Shown in pieces: positions 21,709 through 63,544 of a DNA stretch of 64,000 nt (its first letter is position 1; the number at the start of each line of letters is the position of its first letter). This DNA is from Leucoraja erinacea (taxonomy: Eukaryota). The notes under the pieces are model-generated. The model was given only the letters and a program-made list of their open reading frames with translations, ran no database searches and was not told where the DNA came from. The translations under genes and the position numbers were made by a program. Where the stretch lies: assembly GCF_028641065.1 (NCBI RefSeq), contig NC_073404.1:26908001-26972000 (forward strand), read 5' to 3'.

Positions 21709-21803
21709 CTGAAGAAGGGTTTCGGTCTGAAACGTTGCCTATTTCCTTCGCTCCATAGACACTGCCACATTCGCTAAGTTTCTCCAGCACTTTTGTCTAC
21801 CTT
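21709..21803 (+). ncRNA. Minimal hammerhead ribozyme motif in a Penelope-like terminal repeat
   Basis: CTGAAGA-AGGGTTTCGGTCT-GAAA-CGTT matches the CUGANGA / stem II / GAAA core with palindromic ACGU stem III described for PLE hammerheads; followed by the PLE repeat body. Confidence 0.7.
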
Positions 21804-24203: not shown

Positions 24204-24363
24204 AGTGAGTGACTCCAGCCAGAGTTTGATAAAATGTAGGTGTATCACTATCGTCAGTAAGAGTGATACACACTCCTCCCGACAGCAGCCATCGAGCAAA
24301 TGTGAATGCATCCTTATTCTGAAGGAGCCAATTCTTGAACTTCTCATAATTTACCTTCTCTCC
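24204..24363 (-). CDS. USP32: USP32 coding exon (exon 5 equivalent), 160 bp
   Basis: GEKVNYEKFKNWLLQNKDAFTFARWLLSGGVCITLTDDSDTPTFYQTLAGVTH; ttttag / gtaagt splice sites. Confidence 0.97.
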
Positions 24364-28413: not shown

Positions 28414-31400
28414 CAAACACTAACACACACACATACATAACAAATGTAATAAAGCTGGAGTAGGATAAGGGAGGTATAGTCTTTGCCGGATTGCTTTTCA
28501 TGAGGGGAATAGACCTAGTACTTACTCAGATTAAGCATATTTGGAAGTGGTAGGGGAAAATTCAAGGAAGCAGAATTTGATATTGTTCAGTATTGTCTAT
28601 GGATCTGATGCACTAAAATGCACTCTGTATCTTCCCCTTTGCTCTACCTACTCGCTTTCTGCTTCATCTCTGACAACACATGAAACTTTCAATTTTCCCA
28701 GCTTCCTCAGGGAAATCACAACACACTGGTAGAAAACAAAGCTACTCAAAGTGCAAAAATAGTTCTTCCACTTATTTTTCTCTTGTCCATTTTGACTTGG
28801 AACAATATGCAATATGTTATTAAATTATGATTTGCTGAATTTTTCTCTATGCTTTATAGACTGTGGTCGATCAGTTTATTGTTCCTGGCTGAGGAATGAT
28901 TGGAGTATTTCAAACACAACCTTTAAGAATCACATTATTTTTTTATTTAATTTATTTATATTTATGTGTTCAGTTAATCTATCTCAGATGGAAGATTCCA
29001 GTCATAATCAGCTACGAATGATCTGCATATTGTGCTATGTATAAAGTGCAGACCAGGCACCAGCTCACTATTCTATTTCTGCCATTGTTTTACCACCAAA
29101 AGATTGGTATTCAATTAATTTGGTAATAATGGTGGAATTTTCAGCAATCTCGATGGCTACCAAACTTACGAACCCAATGTTATTAAAATTCCTGAAGGAG
29201 AAATGGCATATTTTATATGTTGTTCAGCTAATTCTTCCTTCCATATTCAAAGTATTGATCAATGCTAAAACCTTCCTTTGGGTGCTTTGGTTCCCAGTGA
29301 CATTCAAAAGATATGCTGATAAGTTAACTGGACTGCAAGTCGCCCATTTTTGTAGGTGAGAGGTAAAAGAATCAAAAGGGATAGTTGGTGGCCATGTGAA
29401 AGAAGTTGCACGTCTACAGGGGGATAAAGCGAGGATGAATGGTACTGGGACATATTAAACTGGTGGAAGCTGGCATAGACTCCATGAACCAAGTGGCCTT
29501 TGCCATAGTAAGTTTATCAAGGATGTCAATAGTATCCAACTATTTTGCCTTATGCTTCTGTATAATCTTACCTTTTAACAGTTGCACTATTACATTAACT
29601 AAACCACACTACTCATCATTGTGATGTCTCTCGGCTAGTTCCATTCAGTGATGTGATGGGATGAAATGTACATGAGATAGCAGGAAAAAAAAAATTCAAT
29701 CTGCAATCCATAAACCCAGATATTTCATTCACGATGCTCTCTGTGGCTTGATAAAAAAGTACAGTTATAACCACAGAAATTGGCTATTGCACGCAGCAAA
29801 AGTACCAAAATAAAGCTATAATTGTAAAAACTCAAACTGGGCCATGTTGATAACAATTCCTCATTATAGAAGCTTTTTAAATGATACTGCAACCACTTAC
29901 ATACACGCATCATTAAACAATCCAATTAAAAATATCACTGTATAATGTCAGAATATGCATTTGCACTGTGCTTTCAAGGTAGCCAACGTGCCTTAGGATG
30001 CCTCACACAACTTATGAGTTCTGATTATTAAAATATTTTGAAGGTACAAATTAGTTTCAGTGAACATATTCACATGAATTAATGAAGTAAAACTATTACT
30101 TACCACACGTACCACCATTCTTCATATAATCCTTATGCTTTTTCTTATTCTAAGTGGAGTTTTTTTTTTATATCAAGCACACATATTGTTATCAGCCCTC
30201 AGGGCAGACATTACAAATGTATTTTACACCAACCTGCGTAAAGTCAATTATGAATTTCTCTTTAAATATGTGTACCGTCAAGGAATAGCTCCCTCCAAAT
30301 CTGTCTACAGTGTTTAAGTACACATGGGTTCATGATTTGTTGGGGAAGCCCCAAAAGGAACCACACAAATAACTATGAAAGAGGAACCTAAAGTATCCAA
30401 TGAACGTGATTACAACTAGCAGTCGTCAAAATTCCTATTACGTAATCAATTATTTTATCTATCTTTGCTCGTCACCAAATGTGATCGTAGAGACAAAAAA
30501 AAAGGGAACCCAAGTTCTTGAGTGGAGTGTTTTTTTAAATTCGAGTGACAATGTCATCACATGCCCCAGATAATATGTTTACAGAAGGGAAGTACGCATA
30601 TCTTTGATAGTTCTTTCCAAGGCAAGCTGACAGAAGAATTATCGAACAAAATTCTCTATCAGGGCACATTATATATTGGGACAGACCAAAAGTTGATTAA
30701 AGTGAAAGGATATTCTTGAAGAAATAAAGAGTTGGGAAAGTGGGATGATTTCAGGAGGGTCGGGCAGTTGAGGACACAGTTGCCAAAAATATTAAACTTG
30801 AATAAGATCAGACTTTTAGAAGTATAGGGAAGCATGTACAAAATGTCAATTATTTCTTCACCTGCTCTCTTTCCAAAATGGTCATTTCTGATTGATTCCA
30901 GAATCAGGCTCCATTTATTCTTACACAAAAATAAATAGTTCTGTTTGTTTAAAGAAGAATATGGAATTTGTTTCAAATGAAAACACAACACTCACTAACC
31001 AGTTCTACCTGGAATAACCAACCAACCAACTCAGAGACAGAGTATTAATGGTCACACGTCCTCATTTTGCCTCCACACACCTATCCTACCCAATTCTCAG
31101 TAAAAAGCAGACTTTTCACTTGTACAGAAGGACAAGCCTTGAATTCTGCATTGTAAACAAAGCAACTACACTTGAAGACTTACAATACTGATTAATTTAG
31201 AGATGAGCCTGAAAACTGCTGCTTTAAATTCTGTTGTGTAAATGACATTCAAAGCTGGTCAGAATAACACAAAAGAACCTTTGCCTTTGTCACCATTGGT
31301 TTAATGGAAAAAAAAGGGCAAAGTTTGGAAAGTTGAAGAGTAATTTAGGGAAATGTGAGGTTATCCATTTAGAACAGAAAATACAAAGTATTGTTAGAAC

Positions 31401-31435
31401 GGAGAGTGACAGCAGAATACCACCATACAGAGAGA

Positions 31436-31624
31436 GGGTTACACAAAAAAGCTGGAGAAACTCAGCGGGTGCAGCAGCATCTATGGAGCGAAGGAGATAG
31501 GCAACGTTTCGGGCCCGAAACGTTGCCTATCTCCTTCGCTCCATAGATGCTGCTGCACCCGCTGAGTTTCTCCAGCTTTTTTGTGTAACCTTCAATTCTC
31601 CAGCATCTGCAGTTCCCTCTTAAA
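31436..31624. mobile_element. Penelope-like terminal-repeat insertion forming a perfect 154-bp palindrome, 15-bp TSD
   Basis: Arms 31437-31513 and 31514-31590 are exact reverse complements; CACCATACAGAGAGA duplicated at 31421-31435 and 31625-31639; interrupts an old CR1 remnant (~31340-32030). Confidence 0.9.
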
Positions 31625-32637
31625 CACCATACAGAGAGATCTGGGCATCCTCCTAGATCAAACAGAGGAATTTAGCATGCAGACACATTTGAAATCCAAA
31701 TGATTTGTCTTTATTGCAAAAATGATCGACTATAGGAGGAGGAGGTCTTGCCACAAGTGTATTGGTGAGATCATGCTTGGAATATTTTGTTTCTTTATTT
31801 GAGAAGCAATGTACATACATGCACCAGAGAGAGTTCAGAGGAAGTTACCAAGTTGACTACTCATGGTCTCATAATATTTTCAAGGCACAGGCAGATAAAT
31901 ATTTGACAAGGAAGGTTTGGAGGTTGTTGCCAGTAGATGGAGATGAAAAATCAGTAATACAGACCAGCCATTATCTTAATAATTGGGGGAGCAAAACCGA
32001 GGGGCTGAATGGTCTCATACTCATTCCGATTCATATTATAATACAAAATATAGATAACATGTTGCTATTGGGAAATGAGTATGATCGAGGACTAGGTGGA
32101 AGGTGATCAAGAATTGAATGAAGGTGATATGCAAAGAAGTGATGAGGAAAAAAATATTTTTATTTGTTAAAATCAAGAGGTGCTTAAGGTCTTTAATACC
32201 CTTACTGGGCAATTGTGGAGGTTTCACGTAGAATTCAAGAGGGCTGAATAACTATATGAAAATAAAAAATGTAGTTCTATGGAGAGATAGCATGGGGATG
32301 GGTCAAATTAGATTTATCTTGCATAAAACAGGAATGGACTTGGCAGGCTTAATGACAGCATTTTATGCCATATCCATTCTGTAATTATATGACAATTTAT
32401 CAGGCAAGTCACAAAGAGACTCAACTTCAGTGCAATAAGATGTTCGATATCTCTATTTGGGTTTAAGTACTATTTTGCACTTGCATTGTTTCATCCAAAA
32501 GATGTGCAATTGAACTTCCTGTGATAAAACTTGAAATAGCTTCTGCATACCAAAATTAAATTGAAGCTGCCAACCTAGACGCTCTGTGACAGAAGCTTCC
32601 ACTTTGTTTGGAAGTTGTTTAAAGTAATGGTTCATGC

Positions 32638-33784: not shown

Positions 33785-33903
33785 CTCTATAAAGCAATTT
33801 TTGACTCCCAGTTGAACTTCTCCATCACAAGCTCGTAACATCGTTTCCATTTCCTCTCGTACAACATAGCTCCCAGATTCATTTGCAAAGAGGTTAAAAA
33901 TAT
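33785..33903 (-). CDS. USP32: USP32 coding exon (exon 4 equivalent), 119 bp
   Basis: (Y)IFNLFANESGSYVVREEMETMLRACDGEVQLGVKNCFIE; ttacag acceptor, gtaggc donor; phase 1 start completes TAT with the previous exon. Confidence 0.95.
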
Positions 33904-37315: not shown

Positions 37316-38559
37316 AAGTGTTTTTTGAAGTGAGAAGGTTAGTTCCTATTTATTTCACAAGGAAAACTCTATTCCATTTGTTATTTAAGGCTGCAATTAA
37401 TAGGAATGCATTTCCAGGTATTATAAAGATATACATTGTAAGGTGCAAAGGAGATCAGCACTTTGTTGCTCGTCACTGCAAAGATAAATACTGTAAGCTT
37501 AAAAATAAAATAACCAGCATGTACATGGGATTTACATGGTTAGTTACATGGAACCTAATTATCCTTGCCGAGTCAATATTAATTCTTCATGAAATGCACA
37601 TATAATTTCCTTTTTTCCTTTTTTAGATCGCATTAAAACACGCATCTATTTTCGCACTGTTAATCATTCAACATTGATATGGCCCATATGCATAGGCATT
37701 GGAAGATTACTCCATATTCTATTATCCATTTCATGGACCACCTCTTGCATGCTCGCACTACAAATTGTGTGACGATTAAGAACAAGACCAAAAATGTACG
37801 ATATAACTTTATTTATCCCAGGAGGGAAATTGATCTGCCAACAGTCATTAAAACTAAAAATACATGAAAAATGAAATTAAAGTCACGAATGGAAAGGATT
37901 GGGGATGTGCAAAGATTGGGGAGTGGGGGGGTGTCAGTCTCAGACTATCCCACGACAGAGGGGAGAGGAGTTGTACACTGCTACCGTAGAATTGGTGCTA
38001 GCGAAGCATCATTCTGCCAAATCACAATCAGTCAAGGAATCAGATGTCTGACAGAGGTTTTTAAAAGGATATTCAAAACACATGTAACTGATTAAAAAAA
38101 ATATCAGTAAAGTATAAAAAAAACCACAACAGTAAACTAAATCAGTAGAAACTAGGAACTGTAAATGCTGGTTTACAAAGAAAATGCTGGAGTAACTCAG
38201 CGGGTCAGGCAGCAAGCATCATGGAGAACATAGATAGGCGACTTCAGGTCAGGACCCTCCTTCAGACACGAGTTCAACACAGAGGATAAAGGTGGGGTCA
38301 GGGGGTGGGTTGGCCGATTGACATAAGTACAGAAAAAATAGAAAGTAAGAAACATTGAAGAGGTTTCTAAAACCACAACGTTTAAAAGGAAGGGGCAGGA
38401 GGGTTTGTGGTATTTGTCGGCTTGTTGTCACGCTGATAGTGAATGGAAACTGGGTTGTTGTACTTGAGAGGATGGAGGTGGCAGAATGTTGCACAGCAAT
38501 TACTATCTAAATTAACTTCAGAATTGCCGAGGCATATGGCAAGAGTGCTCGAGAATGTT

Positions 38560-42612: not shown

Positions 42613-43840
42613 GTCTTAAAAAGTGTAAAGTTCCTTCAGCCCTCTGAGTTTGTCATAATAACAGTTACGATCTCAGAAATTATGAAAATATGCTCCTGAT
42701 AATTATTCGATATAATTAAATTCCTGCACTTAAATCACAAGAGATACATGTTAGAGCAACTGAGCACATTCAAAATCGTGAAATTTTATAAAGTTATCGA
42801 CATAAAGTTAATCATTTCATTTTTGAGAAAAGATTAAGAATAACAAAGGCAACACCTAGTTAAACAGATTTTTTTTTTTTTAAAGAAACAACTCCTAAGA
42901 CAGAGCATTAAACTTTGTTAAATGGAAGTTGGCTTTAAGTACATTATCAGAGTGCCTGATGAAATAACAATCCATGCAAGAATGTGTTTGACCAACATGG
43001 CTTGGGATAAACATTAAATGTGATGATACAAATTTCACCAATATGCACCATCACAAAAATATAAACCTATTATTGACATAAGATAGCACACTCCCTCCCA
43101 ATAATAAAGGCAGTTACCTCTTTCAAGTACAATGACAAGGTCAGCAAGCCTCGCATGGAAATACACCAAAACTATCCCATTTATAGTCTCTAGAACCTGG
43201 AAATTTAGATTGGTTTATAATTGTTAAATGTTCTAAGAGCTCCACTATTAATGAAAAACTAGCATTTATTTGCACATCCACTAGCTTGAATGCCTGAAAG
43301 AATTCTTAACTGGCTTGTCTGTAGCCGAAAACAAGAGATCATTGTATCAAACATTTCAGCTTAAATCGCTATCCTATTCAGTAACAATTATGAATAGGTT
43401 ATACATTTACTAACCTACAAAGAAAATGTTTAAGTACATTTGAGAGGCTGCATGGGAATCTCTTGGGAAGGGTGAGATAAGTGGAAAGAAAATTGCTTTT
43501 CAAAAGAAAAAAGATTAAAAAGGAGTAAACACCATATTCTTCAAATAAACTGAATTTGAGAGTCTGGAACGATCTTGTGGAGTATCTCACTAATACTTAA
43601 TCAAGAATATTGTGAGGAGAACATCCGCTGTTATAATGGAAGGAGCCAAACATGAAATGCTTGAGCTCTTACATTAACAAATACAGAGACTGAAGTCAGC
43701 AACACCCTGCTCCTCCTCTACAATCTGCACTAAAACAACCATTTCAGCTGCTGAACATTTCTACCGTTTTACAACCATTCTGACTGTAAAACCGCCAGAA
43801 AATCCAATCTTGCTGCACAGAAGTGCATTTGAATGTTTAA

Positions 43841-44141
43841 GAAGGAACTGCCGATGCTGGAAAATCGAAGGTACACAAAAATGCTTGAGAAACTCAGCGG
43901 GTGCAGCAGCATCCATGGAGCGAAGGAAATAGGCAACATTTTGGGCCGAAACCTTTCTTCAGACTGATCGGGGGGTGGGGAGAGGCCGGGAGAAGAAAGG
44001 AAAAAGGAGGAGGAGGAGCCCAAGGGCTGAGGGAGAGGTAGGAAGGGGAGGAGACAGCAAGGGCTAACAAAATTGTGAGAATTCAATGTTCATGCCACCA
44101 GGATGCATCTGAGGTGCTGTTCCTCCAATTTCCGGTGTTGC
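43841..44141 (-). mobile_element. 5'-truncated Penelope-like insertion with 11-bp flanking duplication
   Basis: Minus strand encodes RKLEEQHL and GMNIEFSQF, then CTGAAGA-AAGGTTTCGGCCC-AAAA (mutated hammerhead) and the terminal repeat; TGAATGTTTAA at 43830-43840 and 44142-44152. Confidence 0.82.
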
Positions 44142-50999: not shown

Positions 51000-51374
51000 C
51001 TGTCCCTCAACTTACCATAACATTTATAGTCACCAGCACTCTTGCTTCTTATTGAAAAAAGTAACACGCTCACACTCCAAACACTTCCTTAGTACAGTGC
51101 AGAATCAAAGCACTGCAGATGCTGGTTAATACACAAAAGGACACAAAGTGCCGGAGTAACTCCGTAGGTCAGGCAGAATGTCTGGAGAACACAGACAGGC
51201 GACGCTTTGGATTGAGTCCCTTCTTCAATGAATTACAGCGATCAGTGAATACAGTGCTCTCAATACAGATATTAAAGATATGGAGGAAAATCAGTTTAGT
51301 CATGCAATGCCTGATCAATTGCACCAACAAACTTTGCTCTCATGTCAATTTATAGTCATCATTCTGGACCAAAT

Positions 51375-56260: not shown

Positions 56261-59200
56261 ACACAAACAAACAAAAGTAGACAACCAAAACACAACTTTG
56301 ACACTATAAATCCCATTATAAAGAAAGCAAGTTGCCTCTTACTTGAAAAGCATAACGTAGTGTGCACACGAGAATTTATCTGATCTGAGAGCTGACAAGA
56401 CTATGTTTAGAAAGTTATTTAAGGCAGGTCTTGCAGCGCAAGGAGCTGTCCACAACTGAATGCTGCAGTTTGGCACTAAGATCCAGCACTGTGTGCTTAG
56501 CTGCTTTTCTGAAGCCCGAATGTAACTCTCAAAGTGGATCGATTGGGAAAGACTAATTTAAGCTCTCTACTGGAGAGTCTTGATCCATGTTTAAAAATCC
56601 TTGAAATATTTGCTCAGAAATGTACGCAAAGGAAAACTGAAGGAATGCTGAAGTAACAAATGGAAAGACACGACCTCTGACAAAAATGGAACATCCTTTA
56701 TTAAAAATCAAATTTTCAAACACACTTATATATTTGATATAAACATACAAAGAACAACAAACCTGTGCCCTCAATCGCCACAAACCGTCATAAATTGTTT
56801 GGGTTTATCCATGAAGAAAATGGGCGCGTGAGAACCCAACAGTTCTGTGCCAACCTCGTAAGTAAATTTGTTTTTGCTTTTCTTCCCAGCACATGCTGAC
56901 ATACTTTCCTAAATGCAGCACGGTTCTATGTCAACCTTCCGATGTGCACAAAACAGTTAAAGCGCGCTACATGTTCAGGTCCCCAAGTAAGATTCCCACA
57001 AAACAATATTCCTTACAGAAAGGAAAGAGAAAGCCGTACTTCACATACACTCAAAGTGCACCTGATTCCACAAGAATTAGCACGCACACCAGAGGCTCTG
57101 GGGATTCTTAAAGAGATGCTTAGCACAAATAACCTTCTGCTAACATCTAGCGATAGCAAGTGAGGAATTAATAGGGAAATGAACACAAGTTACATATGCA
57201 TCAGCTACAGGTGCACACATTCTTATCTTGTATGAGCTACATAAGAAATTAAACTCGTTAGTGGGATTACTTTATGATAGATTGCTGAAGCTTCCCACAT
57301 TACATAGCCAAAAAAGTGCAAGCCTGATGTAGAACAGAGTGGGGACTTGTAGTTACTCACTGGCCACCAAGGGTCTCACAATGACTACATTCTACAGAAA
57401 CCTTGCGGGACAAAGCATAGATAAACAAGGAACTGCAGATGCTGGTGTATAAAAATAAAGACACAAAGTACTGGAGTAGTTCAGCAGGTCAGGCAGCATC
57501 TCTGGAAAACATTTATAGTGATGATTGGGACAGGACATTTATTCATAGCTTAGATAAAGTTGTACTTGTTAAAGCCTTACACTCTGAGGTCTACTATTTT
57601 AAAATCATTCACTTTTGACCTCCTGAAGCTACAGGATTATTTTTAGATGTTTGTTTCATAATCTTTTCAACTGTCCAACTAAATGTCCCCAAAGAGATGC
57701 CTGACCTTGTGCAAAATGCACCCACAATCCCTTTACAAGATGAAGATATTGTGAGAGACAGGATCATAATATGAACAGTAAACAAAGTATGTTTACTGGT
57801 CATATGTACTGGAACTGTGAAACACTTGCGCGCTGCAGCTTTTTACAGCCACTAACCCCGACAATTCAAAATATCAGTGATAAAAGCTTTTCAGATATGC
57901 ATGACTAAAAATATCACCATTCGCATGCGACCACAGCAATCCATGAAGCACTCCCTTAGCAGTTGAATAGCTTGGTGCTTCATATGTAACTATCCTGTAA
58001 TTCACTTCATTTAATTGTTTGAAACTCTTAATTTGCAGGAAACGGGCCAAGTGTATACAATAAATATCAGTAAATGGAAGTACAGGATGAAATAACACTT
58101 GAACCATTTCCAGGAGTGTCACCTTCTACTCAAAAACCTTTTACGTAACAGAACTCGATTCAGTACTAGGCACATGCATTGCACATGTTCCTCTTCACAA
58201 TTGTGTTACAGCATTAAACAAAAAGCTTTATTTTCTACTTTTTCCTAACCACAATTTTAAAGAGCTACCCTATTGTCAACAACAATATTAATCTAGAGCT
58301 TCCAGGATTCCCGTTTCCAAACAAGAGTTTATTCCTTACTGAATTAGAAAAATAAAACATTCAGAAAGTATCCAGCCACTACAATAAGTAAAATAAAGCC
58401 AAATTAGTATGTATAGAGCTTTTATACAGATAAATGACCCATTTGTACTTCTGAGACCATTGTCAAACAAGATTTTTCACCATACGAGGATGGTCAGATA
58501 CGAGGATGACAGACTTGCTTAATAGATGTTTGAGGGAACCCCAAAGGAGACAGAGGTAGAAAGATGAGGCTTGGAGAAGAGAATTTCAGAGATTAGTGTC
58601 TAACCAGCTGAAGATTAGGCCATCAATGGTAAGGCAATTAAAATCAAGGATGAAACATAATTTGAAAAGTGGAGCTTGCAGCTGATGCAAGGTCCTGATG
58701 ATCTAGTCCTGATGCAGCACCTGACCCAAATATTCACACATAGTTTTTCCCTCCACTTGACTGCCACGTTCTTTCATCAATTCACTTTTGCACAAGGTAA
58801 ACAAAAACACAGGGGTGACTTTGCTGAAGCTTAGCCATTCTTCATCAACCCGATTGATGCATGAAATTATGATGCCTAACTTCTCACTGGAACATTACCA
58901 AGCTCACTTTTGAAGTTTTTTTGTGTCGTCTCGTGAGGATCCATGTAGTGCCCATGGGCATAAAGTTCAGTCATTTGCACATCAATCTTCTCCCTCCAGA
59001 ATGATATGTTTGCAGATTATGCAAATATCAGGATTCCAATTGCAAACTAACTTTTGTCACTCTGACTAATGAGCTTGGTTCCACCATCGTTGAGCTTTCT
59101 CCTTTTCATATATCCACAAGTCACAACGCATGAAAAAAAAAGAGAAACAATAACACAGCAGCACAAAATCCCTCAATTTTTTACATCTCACTGTTTTGTT

Positions 59201-59419: not shown

Positions 59420-60990
59420 GAGATTTGGGCACAATCAACATGGATTTATAAAAGGAAATATTGTTTGACTAATCTGTTAGTGAGTTTGAGGTTGTACAAA
59501 ACGGTCAGGAATTAGCATGTACAGATGGAAAAAAAAGAATAAAAGATAGAGAGACTGTAACCAGCAGGATACTGCAGGGAATGGTGATGGGACCTCAATT
59601 GTTCACAATCTGTATCAACAATTTGGATGAGAAGACTATGCACATTGTATCCAAGTTGGCTGATAATACAAGGTTAGGTGTTGGTGTGAGCTGTGTGGAG
59701 GTGGTGAATCGGCAAGCTTGTGATAAAGAGAATATAATATGTAAAAATATTAATTTATCAACTGCCAGAAAAATAGAAAGGCAGATTATTTTGTTTAAAA
59801 AGGTAAGTAAATTGAAAGGTGTTGGCATCCAGGTACTCCAATGTCTTTGTATACAATTTATTTCAACTTAACTTGCAGGTTCGCCAAGCCATTAGGAACA
59901 CAAACAGTGAGTTAACTTTTACTGCAAGAGAAATTGAGTACAAGAGTTGATGTTTTCTGCTAACTACAGCCACGATGCATTGGGCATACTGTGTGCACGA
60001 AAAGTCTTTTTACTTGGGAGAGATTGCGCTTGGAAACAAGTGCAGCAAAGGTTCTGCAGATCAATTCCTGGGAAGGTAGGATTGTCATACAAGGAGAGTG
60101 AAAACAGACTATCTCATACTTTTGAGTTTAGAAGAATGTGAGGTGATCTCACTGAAGCACACAAAAGTCTAAAGGGCCTGTCCCACTTACGTGTCCTTGG
60201 CACGCAAATTACGCGACCTCGTGGTCGCGTGGTAATTTCATTCAACCGCACAGCCGTCTGGAGTGCATGACGTTATTTGAAGATGGACGCAAAATGCCGG
60301 AGTAACTCAGCGGGATCAGCAGCATCTCTGGTGAGAAGGAATGGGTGTGTTTCGGGTCGAGACTCTTCTTCAGTCCGAAAGAAGGGTCTTGTCCCGAAAC
60401 GTTAACCATTCCTTCTCTCCAGAGATGTTGCCGGTCCCGCTGAGTTACTCCAGCATTTTGTGTCTATCTTCAATTTTCTTGGCCCCGCTCTGGGAGTAGA
60501 AGTGGGGGCGGATCCGGACCGCAACGGCCGTGAGCCCCAGGCTGAGCTCGACGATCGTTTACCTGCTTCTGCTGCTGTTAGAGGTGAGACATGGGTCTTG
60601 GGCCTGTCCCGCTTCGGCCATCAGTTCCGCGATAGGCCGTTGGCGAGCGAAGATTTTGTTCGCTACAAAAATTTAGGAGCCCCGCGTGATGTTGTGCACA
60701 ACTACATACCCCTCCGCATTTCTCAGTGGGACCTTCCACGGGCGACCATACGATGCCCGCGCGCCTCAATGAGACCACAAGGTCGCGTAATTTGCGTGCC
60801 AAGGAAACTCAAGTGGGGCAGGCCCTAAGACTTTGTCAGGCTCGATACACAATTTGTTTTCCTCTTGCTGGGGTATCCAGAACAAGGGGACAATGTTTCA
60901 AAATCAGAGGCTGGCTTTTTATGACAGATAAGGAATTTCTTCAAAGGGTTGAAGTATCGTTGGAATTCATCTTTCTAAAGAGTTGCAGAG
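59420..60990 (+). mobile_element. Old CR1 LINE fragment split by MITE copy 5
   Basis: GPQLFTICINNLD..SKLADNTRLG, then RGDL.E..K and FPLAGVSRTRGQ on either side of the MITE. Confidence 0.75.
60173..60826. mobile_element. PIF/Harbinger-type MITE, copy 5, carrying a PLE hairpin
   Basis: ~55-bp inverted termini starting AGGGCCTGTCCCACT; TAA at the left junction and an overlapping TAA at the right junction; internal PLE fold-back at 60277-60473. Confidence 0.85.
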
Positions 60991-62954: not shown

Positions 62955-63544
62955 AGATAGACACAAAAAATTGGAGTAACTCAGCGGGACAGGCAGCATC
63001 TCTGGAGAGAAGGAATGGGTGACGTTCTGGGTCAAGACATCTATTTACATTAAAATAAACTGCTGCAGGAACTCAGTGGTTCCAGCACCATTTGTGGAGG
63101 CAAATAAATTATTGATGTTTGAGATGGGACTTCAGGACAGAAAGGCCAAGTTCAAATTAAAAGTATCACCCCCATCAAACTAAATCACATTTGAACACCG
63201 CTCAATCTATCTAAACATACCTGATCTCCCGGTTGCTAAATACTTTAACTCCCCCTCCCATTCCCACACTGACCTTTGTCATGGGTCTCCTCCATTGTCA
63301 GAGTGAGGGCCAGCGCAAATTGGAGGAACTGCACCTCATATTTTGCTTGGGCAGCTTACACCCCAGCGGTATGAACATTGACTTATCTAACTTCAAGTAA
63401 CCCTTGCTTTCCCTCTCTCTCTCCAACCCCACAGTTCTCCGATCAGTCTTACCGTCTCTGACTACATTTTATCTCTTTTGCTTTGTTGTTACCTTTCCCA
63501 ACCAACAATGATCTTAGATAGATACAAAAAACTGGAGTAACTCA
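62955..63544. mobile_element. Cluster of Penelope-like pieces, including a GIY-YIG C-terminus (+)
   Basis: 63220-63400 encodes PDLPVAKYFNSPSHSHTDL..GLLHCQSEGQRKLEELHLIFCLGSLHPSGMNIDLSNFK*; inverted terminal-repeat pieces at 62955-63040 and 63515-63544. Confidence 0.8.

Follow-up and report, generated by a model that had tools for sequence, protein, structure and literature searches.

The layout of a head-to-head inverted repeat with a one-sided tail and a surrounding duplication is already published for Penelope-like elements (PLEs). The accounts of EN+ PLE insertions (Pen2a_Av and others, PMC3846280; layout in PMC8557442) describe the same head-to-head inverted repeat and junction palindrome as found at the skate locus reported here, the same tail of 30–40 bp at one end (34 bp at our locus), and a duplication that likewise encloses the whole unit. 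Self-priming on an antisense template is favored in the discussion of PMC3846280, counter to the dual priming proposed below, and a lizard element was found to cut and extend both strands in vitro, with two start sites that delimit the tail (PMC11167929). A search of open-access papers yielded no report of such hairpins in cartilaginous fish and no paper linking Penelope with twin priming. In twin priming of L1, as in the route proposed below, reverse transcription starts from both strands of the target; a 5' inversion within the target-site duplication is the outcome in L1.

The locus lies in a 64-kb window, i.e., the whole stretch of DNA that was analyzed, and is a dead 189-bp stub of an abundant, putatively Neptune-type PLE, made up of non-coding leader only and located in an intron of USP32 (Table 1). 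Sequence analysis of the window bore out the structure given in the original prediction, i.e., a perfect palindrome (31437–31590) with arms of 77 + 77 bp, zero spacer and the center between 31513 and 31514, followed directly by 34 single-copy bases, palindrome and tail together being bracketed by an exact 15-bp direct repeat. One extra G has to be added to this description, wedged between the left copy of the duplication and the inverted arm. The second-longest perfect palindrome of the 64-kb window has 10-bp arms (20 bp at 568–587). As the first 3 bases of the duplication (CAC) are also the parent element's own sequence past the tail end, the insertion boundary is ambiguous by 3 bases. The two minus-strand exons on either side follow one another in USP32 and reach their highest identities with proteins of cartilaginous fish, and the insertion site is therefore intronic, as had been predicted; comparison of one USP32 exon with the Protein Atlas gave no usable match. 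Older head-to-head pairs of related subfamilies, 77–84% alike to the young arm, are found at 1005–1181 and 60291–60478 of the window, and single arms at 21729–21803, 38173–38226, 43836–43945, 51112–51187, 57429–57506, and 62961–63099.

Table 1. Features of the insertion and of its host intron (positions in the 64-kb window).
Feature	Position	Strand	Basis or remark
Left copy of the 15-bp target-site duplication	31421..31435	+	Exact repeat; present once in the empty site of organisms B and D
Extra G, fits neither target nor element, likely untemplated	31436	.	Sequence; element continuation
Inverted arm without tail, leader +23..+99 (numbering from TCAGT), with its outer end at the fixed inner site	31437..31513	-
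Forward arm, leader +23..+99, identical to the inverted arm	31514..31590	+
3' remnant of hammerhead-like core (CCC GAAA CGTT), mirrored at 31503-31513, without the CTGAAGA half	31514..31524	+	Comparison with the full-length unit; no Rfam hammerhead match
One-sided 34-bp tail, leader +100..+133; in the full unit the long ORF has its ATG 36 bases past the tail end	31591..31624	+
Right copy of the duplication; leading CAC also fits the element continuation	31625..31639	+
USP32 exon upstream of the host intron, P0005 residues 99-137	33785..33901	-	tblastn, 95% identity
USP32 exon downstream of the host intron, P0005 residues 138-190	24205..24363	-	

Run X1, from organism A and possibly the source sample, has read-derived contigs that extend over both junctions, with 0 differences in 30900–31460 and 2 in 31602–32200; the center of the palindrome is bridged by no listed read-derived contig, run X1 included. 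The original prediction had suggested a search for the empty site in related species, and this site is bridged in the runs of two of the three: X3 (organism B) and X11 (organism D) each have one contig that joins 31420 directly to 31625, with a single copy of the repeat, and in X7 (organism C) the site is not bridged by a contig. It follows that the 15-bp repeat is a true target-site duplication and that the insertion is young, in agreement with the earlier reading of a young Penelope-like insertion that arose in one integration event. Identical arms are not rare in the family, 0 differences over 55 sites being seen in 14 of 101 arm pairs. The locus can serve as a presence/absence marker among related species and is otherwise of little importance.

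The arm and tail of the window copy match the ends of a long parent element at 98%. With leader coordinates counted from TCAGT, the arm covers +23 to +99 and the tail continues up to +133, the ATG following at +170. The parent (L067) has a frame of 806 aa with RVT_1 at 290–459 (E 3.3e-6) and GIY-YIG at 710–745 (E 0.0054), both scores being below the Pfam gathering cut-offs, and with the motifs YIDD at 453 and DKG near 208, and with CNRKRCNTC at residue 673 between the reverse transcriptase (RT) and the endonuclease. Of 20 loci selected by the 5' region of the element, 5 have a tandem pseudo-LTR layout, where the ORF start comes after 3' UTR, arm, and tail of like orientation. Having RT plus GIY-YIG at the C-terminus, pseudo-LTR tandems, inverted copies, a tail and a target-site duplication, the parent is an EN+ PLE. 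According to PMC8557442, the Neptune clade has a CX2-5CxxC linker that separates RT from endonuclease, a feature shared with Nematis; the putative Neptune-type assignment is based on this Cys linker. Many endonuclease copies (92,147 first-look candidates) show 99% identity and have long open frames, which reach 806 aa, and the family has therefore been active very recently.

The window hairpin is ordinary in kind and one of thousands. Pattern searches of the genome found 8,569 head-to-head junctions with spacers of 0–30 bases, 1,463 loci with the exact odd center (33-base pattern; the native 7+1+7 hairpin of the element), and 82 loci with the exact even center of the window locus (34-base pattern), the reversed-pattern controls giving 0 in each case. 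A single G distinguishes the even class from the odd class, and the even class makes up about 5% of both together. For closer inspection 125 hairpins were fetched, i.e., the first 90 of the 1,463 odd loci by position (contigs C1 and C2, thus not a random sample) and 35 of the 82 even loci. The tail was found on one arm only in 119 of the 125 and on none in 5, and the single hairpin scored as having it on both was one-tailed on inspection. A duplication was scored in 74 of 86 intact-ended loci and measured 13–16 bp in 59 of the 74. With these numbers, the expectation that other hairpin copies flanked by duplications exist in the genome has been confirmed. An adjacent head-to-head inverted copy was present at 18 of the 30 nearest copies and at 6 of 9 long loci. 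Junctions vary widely, and among the 50 junctions listed 20 have spacers beyond the odd class. A 52-base junction class recurs (6 of the 50 listed), in which one arm reaches to about +5 and the other starts from +23. The even-centered hairpins (n = 33) fell into the subfamily tags as 10, 9, and 4, with 10 having no assigned tag; as they are present in all three tags scored, even centers arise repeatedly. The idea that a non-autonomous hairpin is copied as a unit, in the manner of a MITE or SINE, is disfavored because even centers carry three subfamily tags and the junctions vary widely, and the corresponding part of the original prediction is not supported as the best reading. Two of the even-centered loci, L042 and L043 (G000:C5, 81 kb apart), represent a local duplication; they are 94–96% alike over kilobases and have the same even-centered hairpin and the same duplication.

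It is likely that the stub was built at its landing site from two cDNAs, one per cut target strand, that were joined head to head. The endonuclease would cut both target strands about 15 bases apart, and one target 3' end would prime at the outer start site (+133, the tail end) and the other at the inner site (+99), so that the tail would be present on one side only. Both cDNAs would copy RNA of one source locus toward the RNA 5' end, probably at TCAGT (+1), and the products would be short because copying runs off at this nearby end. The cDNA 3' ends would subsequently anneal via self-complementary bases of the ribozyme hairpin, usually the 7+1+7 hairpin and at the window locus the tetramer GGCC, and fill-in would yield both the palindrome and the target duplication. 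A joint at the self-complementary GGCC would result in zero spacer, an outcome that is unavailable to a fold-back without a loop. For the origin of two overlapping copies from one source RNA, the candidates are two RNAs, a tandem RNA, or strand displacement.

Several properties of the family bear on dual priming. The 30 nearest copies include 18 adjacent pairs, in 17 of which the tail-less arm had its outer end at a single site, and the turn point varied. Solo tail-less copies with an abutting duplication were found at 4 of 30 loci, solo tailed copies at 3 of 30, and one hairpin (L031) is tail-less on both sides and has a duplication, which together indicate that each start site is able to prime alone. 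Source variants are common to the arms of a pair (agreement in 279 of 303 diagnostic cells; shuffle mean 183, maximum 210), and long pairs also share private variants between their arms; both arms therefore come from one source locus. Rare variants in 101 pairs were confined to a single arm in 254 cases and shared in 21, which rules out strong ongoing conversion between arms. A stop at TCAGT was seen in 11 of 30 copies, these being picked for reaching TCAGT, and loose contig ends in all four runs lose the consensus at TCAGT. With 6 upstream bases added, the number of matches fell from 11,354 to 3,729, but this overstates truncation because many copies continue with variant bases, and the count of 11 of 30 was used instead. 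TCAGT is likely to be the RNA 5' end of the element, and it resembles an initiator. An internal promoter with an initiator is described for Drosophila Penelope (PMC2377424). In 35 of 63 loci the duplication shares one or more bases with the element continuation, an uncontrolled count that is weak as a signal of microhomology at the tailed end.

The junction statistics of the family favor dual priming over fold-back, without proving it. The original prediction had proposed a self-primed fold-back cDNA, an idea related to the self-priming (PMC3846280) and the 'endonuclease-mediated resolution' (PMC8557442) discussed for other PLEs. In such a model, a tail-primed cDNA would fold on the native hairpin, copy itself, and stop or be cut 34 bases short. 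It is in keeping with a fold-back that the commonest junction is the native 7+1+7 hairpin of the element, which folds in the cDNA strand too, and that variants are common to both arms, although the latter are equally predicted by fold-back and by dual priming and do not separate the two. On the other hand, a fold-back predicts that the center base always comes from the tailed arm, whereas among 86 odd hairpins it came from the tailed arm in 46 and from the opposite one in 40 (binomial test against even odds, p 0.59); these counts are from the 90 sampled loci, as exact patterns of 102 bases combining center base and tail side matched only 2 and 2 loci, which is too few. Since a fold-back copy cannot exceed its template, it also counts against a fold-back that in 5 of 18 short pairs and in 4 of 6 long pairs the tail-less arm extends beyond the tailed arm on the 5' side, in the long pairs up to 3.2 kb vs. 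0.65 kb. Nor can a fold-back give the solo tail-less insertions with their duplication, and the zero-spacer GGG/CCC center would leave it no loop to fold on. It is therefore not supported as the best reading, and we regard it as quite improbable. Counter to dual priming, the 46:40 ratio is also expected if longer hairpins had later shortened by slippage between near-direct repeats of 15 bp, which are created by the native hairpin, and a later asymmetric deletion in a long palindrome could make the arms unequal.

Slippage is also central to the possibility that the hairpin originally had a longer spacer and that its center was later shortened, by slippage or hairpin cleavage, to a perfect palindrome. 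The longer junctions are common enough for this, and the near-direct repeats inside them suit slippage. We nevertheless consider it unlikely, as the window copy is very young, with identical arms and absent in two relatives, as long pairs have filler or templated patches at their junctions, which is typical of ends joined during insertion, and as two arms with different outer ends would still be required. Finally, the even center could be a one-base homopolymer error of the consensus, the true allele being of the common odd class. That one G separates the classes, that the even class is small (82 vs. 1,463) and that the window center is spanned by no listed read-derived contig would fit such an error, but the even center is retained in L042 as well as in its paralog L043 (94.5% alike over 1.8 kb) and GGCC is a natural annealing register, so that this explanation has very little probability.

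At L070:1352–1390 (G000:C1, near 120046160), in a long head-to-head pair, about 36 junction bases match the early ORF in antisense by eye, which suggests that the patch is templated and reflects a template jump during joining of the long pair; an exact search for a templated source of the L070 filler gave no match. In another long pair (L071:2170–2270) the junction has a filler of about 55 bases that is short and tandemly repeated. At L001:1501–2200, which is also head-to-head, the forward arm fuses tail and ORF start to the 3' UTR, by internal deletion or template jump.

A candidate hammerhead-like core of the parent is recognized by eye from CTGAAGA, an unpaired A before stem II, GAAA, and the palindromic ACGT of helix III, with a stem II of 3 bp and a stem I of about 2 bp. 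The parent's repeat had no Rfam hammerhead match up to E 10, only weak unrelated matches being obtained, and in the 64-kb window no Rfam family reached its gathering score. The lowest-energy folds of the parent do not form a hammerhead. The forward arm of the window copy begins at the first C of the stem II 3' strand. The original prediction was correct in that the CTGAAGA half is missing, but its placement of the turn inside stem II is only nearly right, as the GGG left of the center is the inverted copy of CCC and not the native stem II 5' strand. Because both arms begin at +23 and the CTGANGA box is upstream of that, the window insertion is no ribozyme, its core being destroyed. The arms span the predicted ribozyme cut site, as expected if the template RNA was uncleaved (cf. 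PMC11167929). None of 18 adjacent tail-less arms ended at the cut site, a partial test, as the genome-wide patterns select arms that span it. The USP32-sense strand is predicted to fold into a hairpin (-157 kcal/mol, z -24.6), as is the DNA strand of the insertion (-102); formation of dsRNA and of a cruciform at the window hairpin is thus to be seen as a folding potential only.

It is tempting to speculate that the stubs as a group are a fossil record of PLE integration, in which dual-strand priming on RNA of one source locus, two fixed sites, run-off at TCAGT, and annealing of the cDNA ends through the ribozyme hairpin would be traceable and the 46:40 distribution would be the trace of a G:G mismatch. 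This wider reading is held tentatively, with nearly as much to be said for it as against it. If true, it would replace the published idea of antisense self-priming, and the introns of this lineage would be a very large natural source of long, near-perfect dsRNA. If transcribed in introns, the hairpins would be abundant substrates of ADAR and Dicer. With its thousands of young junctions, the genome provides material by which the models can be told apart.

Compared with Pen2a_Av and the other insertions described in PMC3846280, the window copy is only 189 bp of leader without an ORF, and its family is present in thousands of copies. The duplications are mostly 13–16 bp in the skate family vs. 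8–10 bp in the rotifer examples given there (PMC3846280). The parent has the same core boxes as the minimal hammerheads described for metazoan PLEs, including the extra A and the palindromic helix III (PMC4209133), but differs from them in its short stems (II 3 bp, I about 2 bp) and in having no Rfam match, and the window copy is without the 5' half. A similar priming system is that of PAc (Poseidon, Anolis carolinensis; PMC11167929): both elements have two fixed ends that delimit the tail, about 100–135 bases in and downstream of the ribozyme, but the start sites of PAc are inside the ORF whereas those of the skate family are upstream of the ATG. The in vitro work concerns another clade than the window family, and head-to-head junctions are not treated in the part of PMC11167929 drawn on here. 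Unlike PAc, the skate family has a Cys linker of the Neptune/Nematis type. L1 twin priming differs in that each of its two segments copies another part of the RNA, from internal sites that vary, whereas the skate arms copy the same part of the RNA from two fixed sites 34 bases apart.
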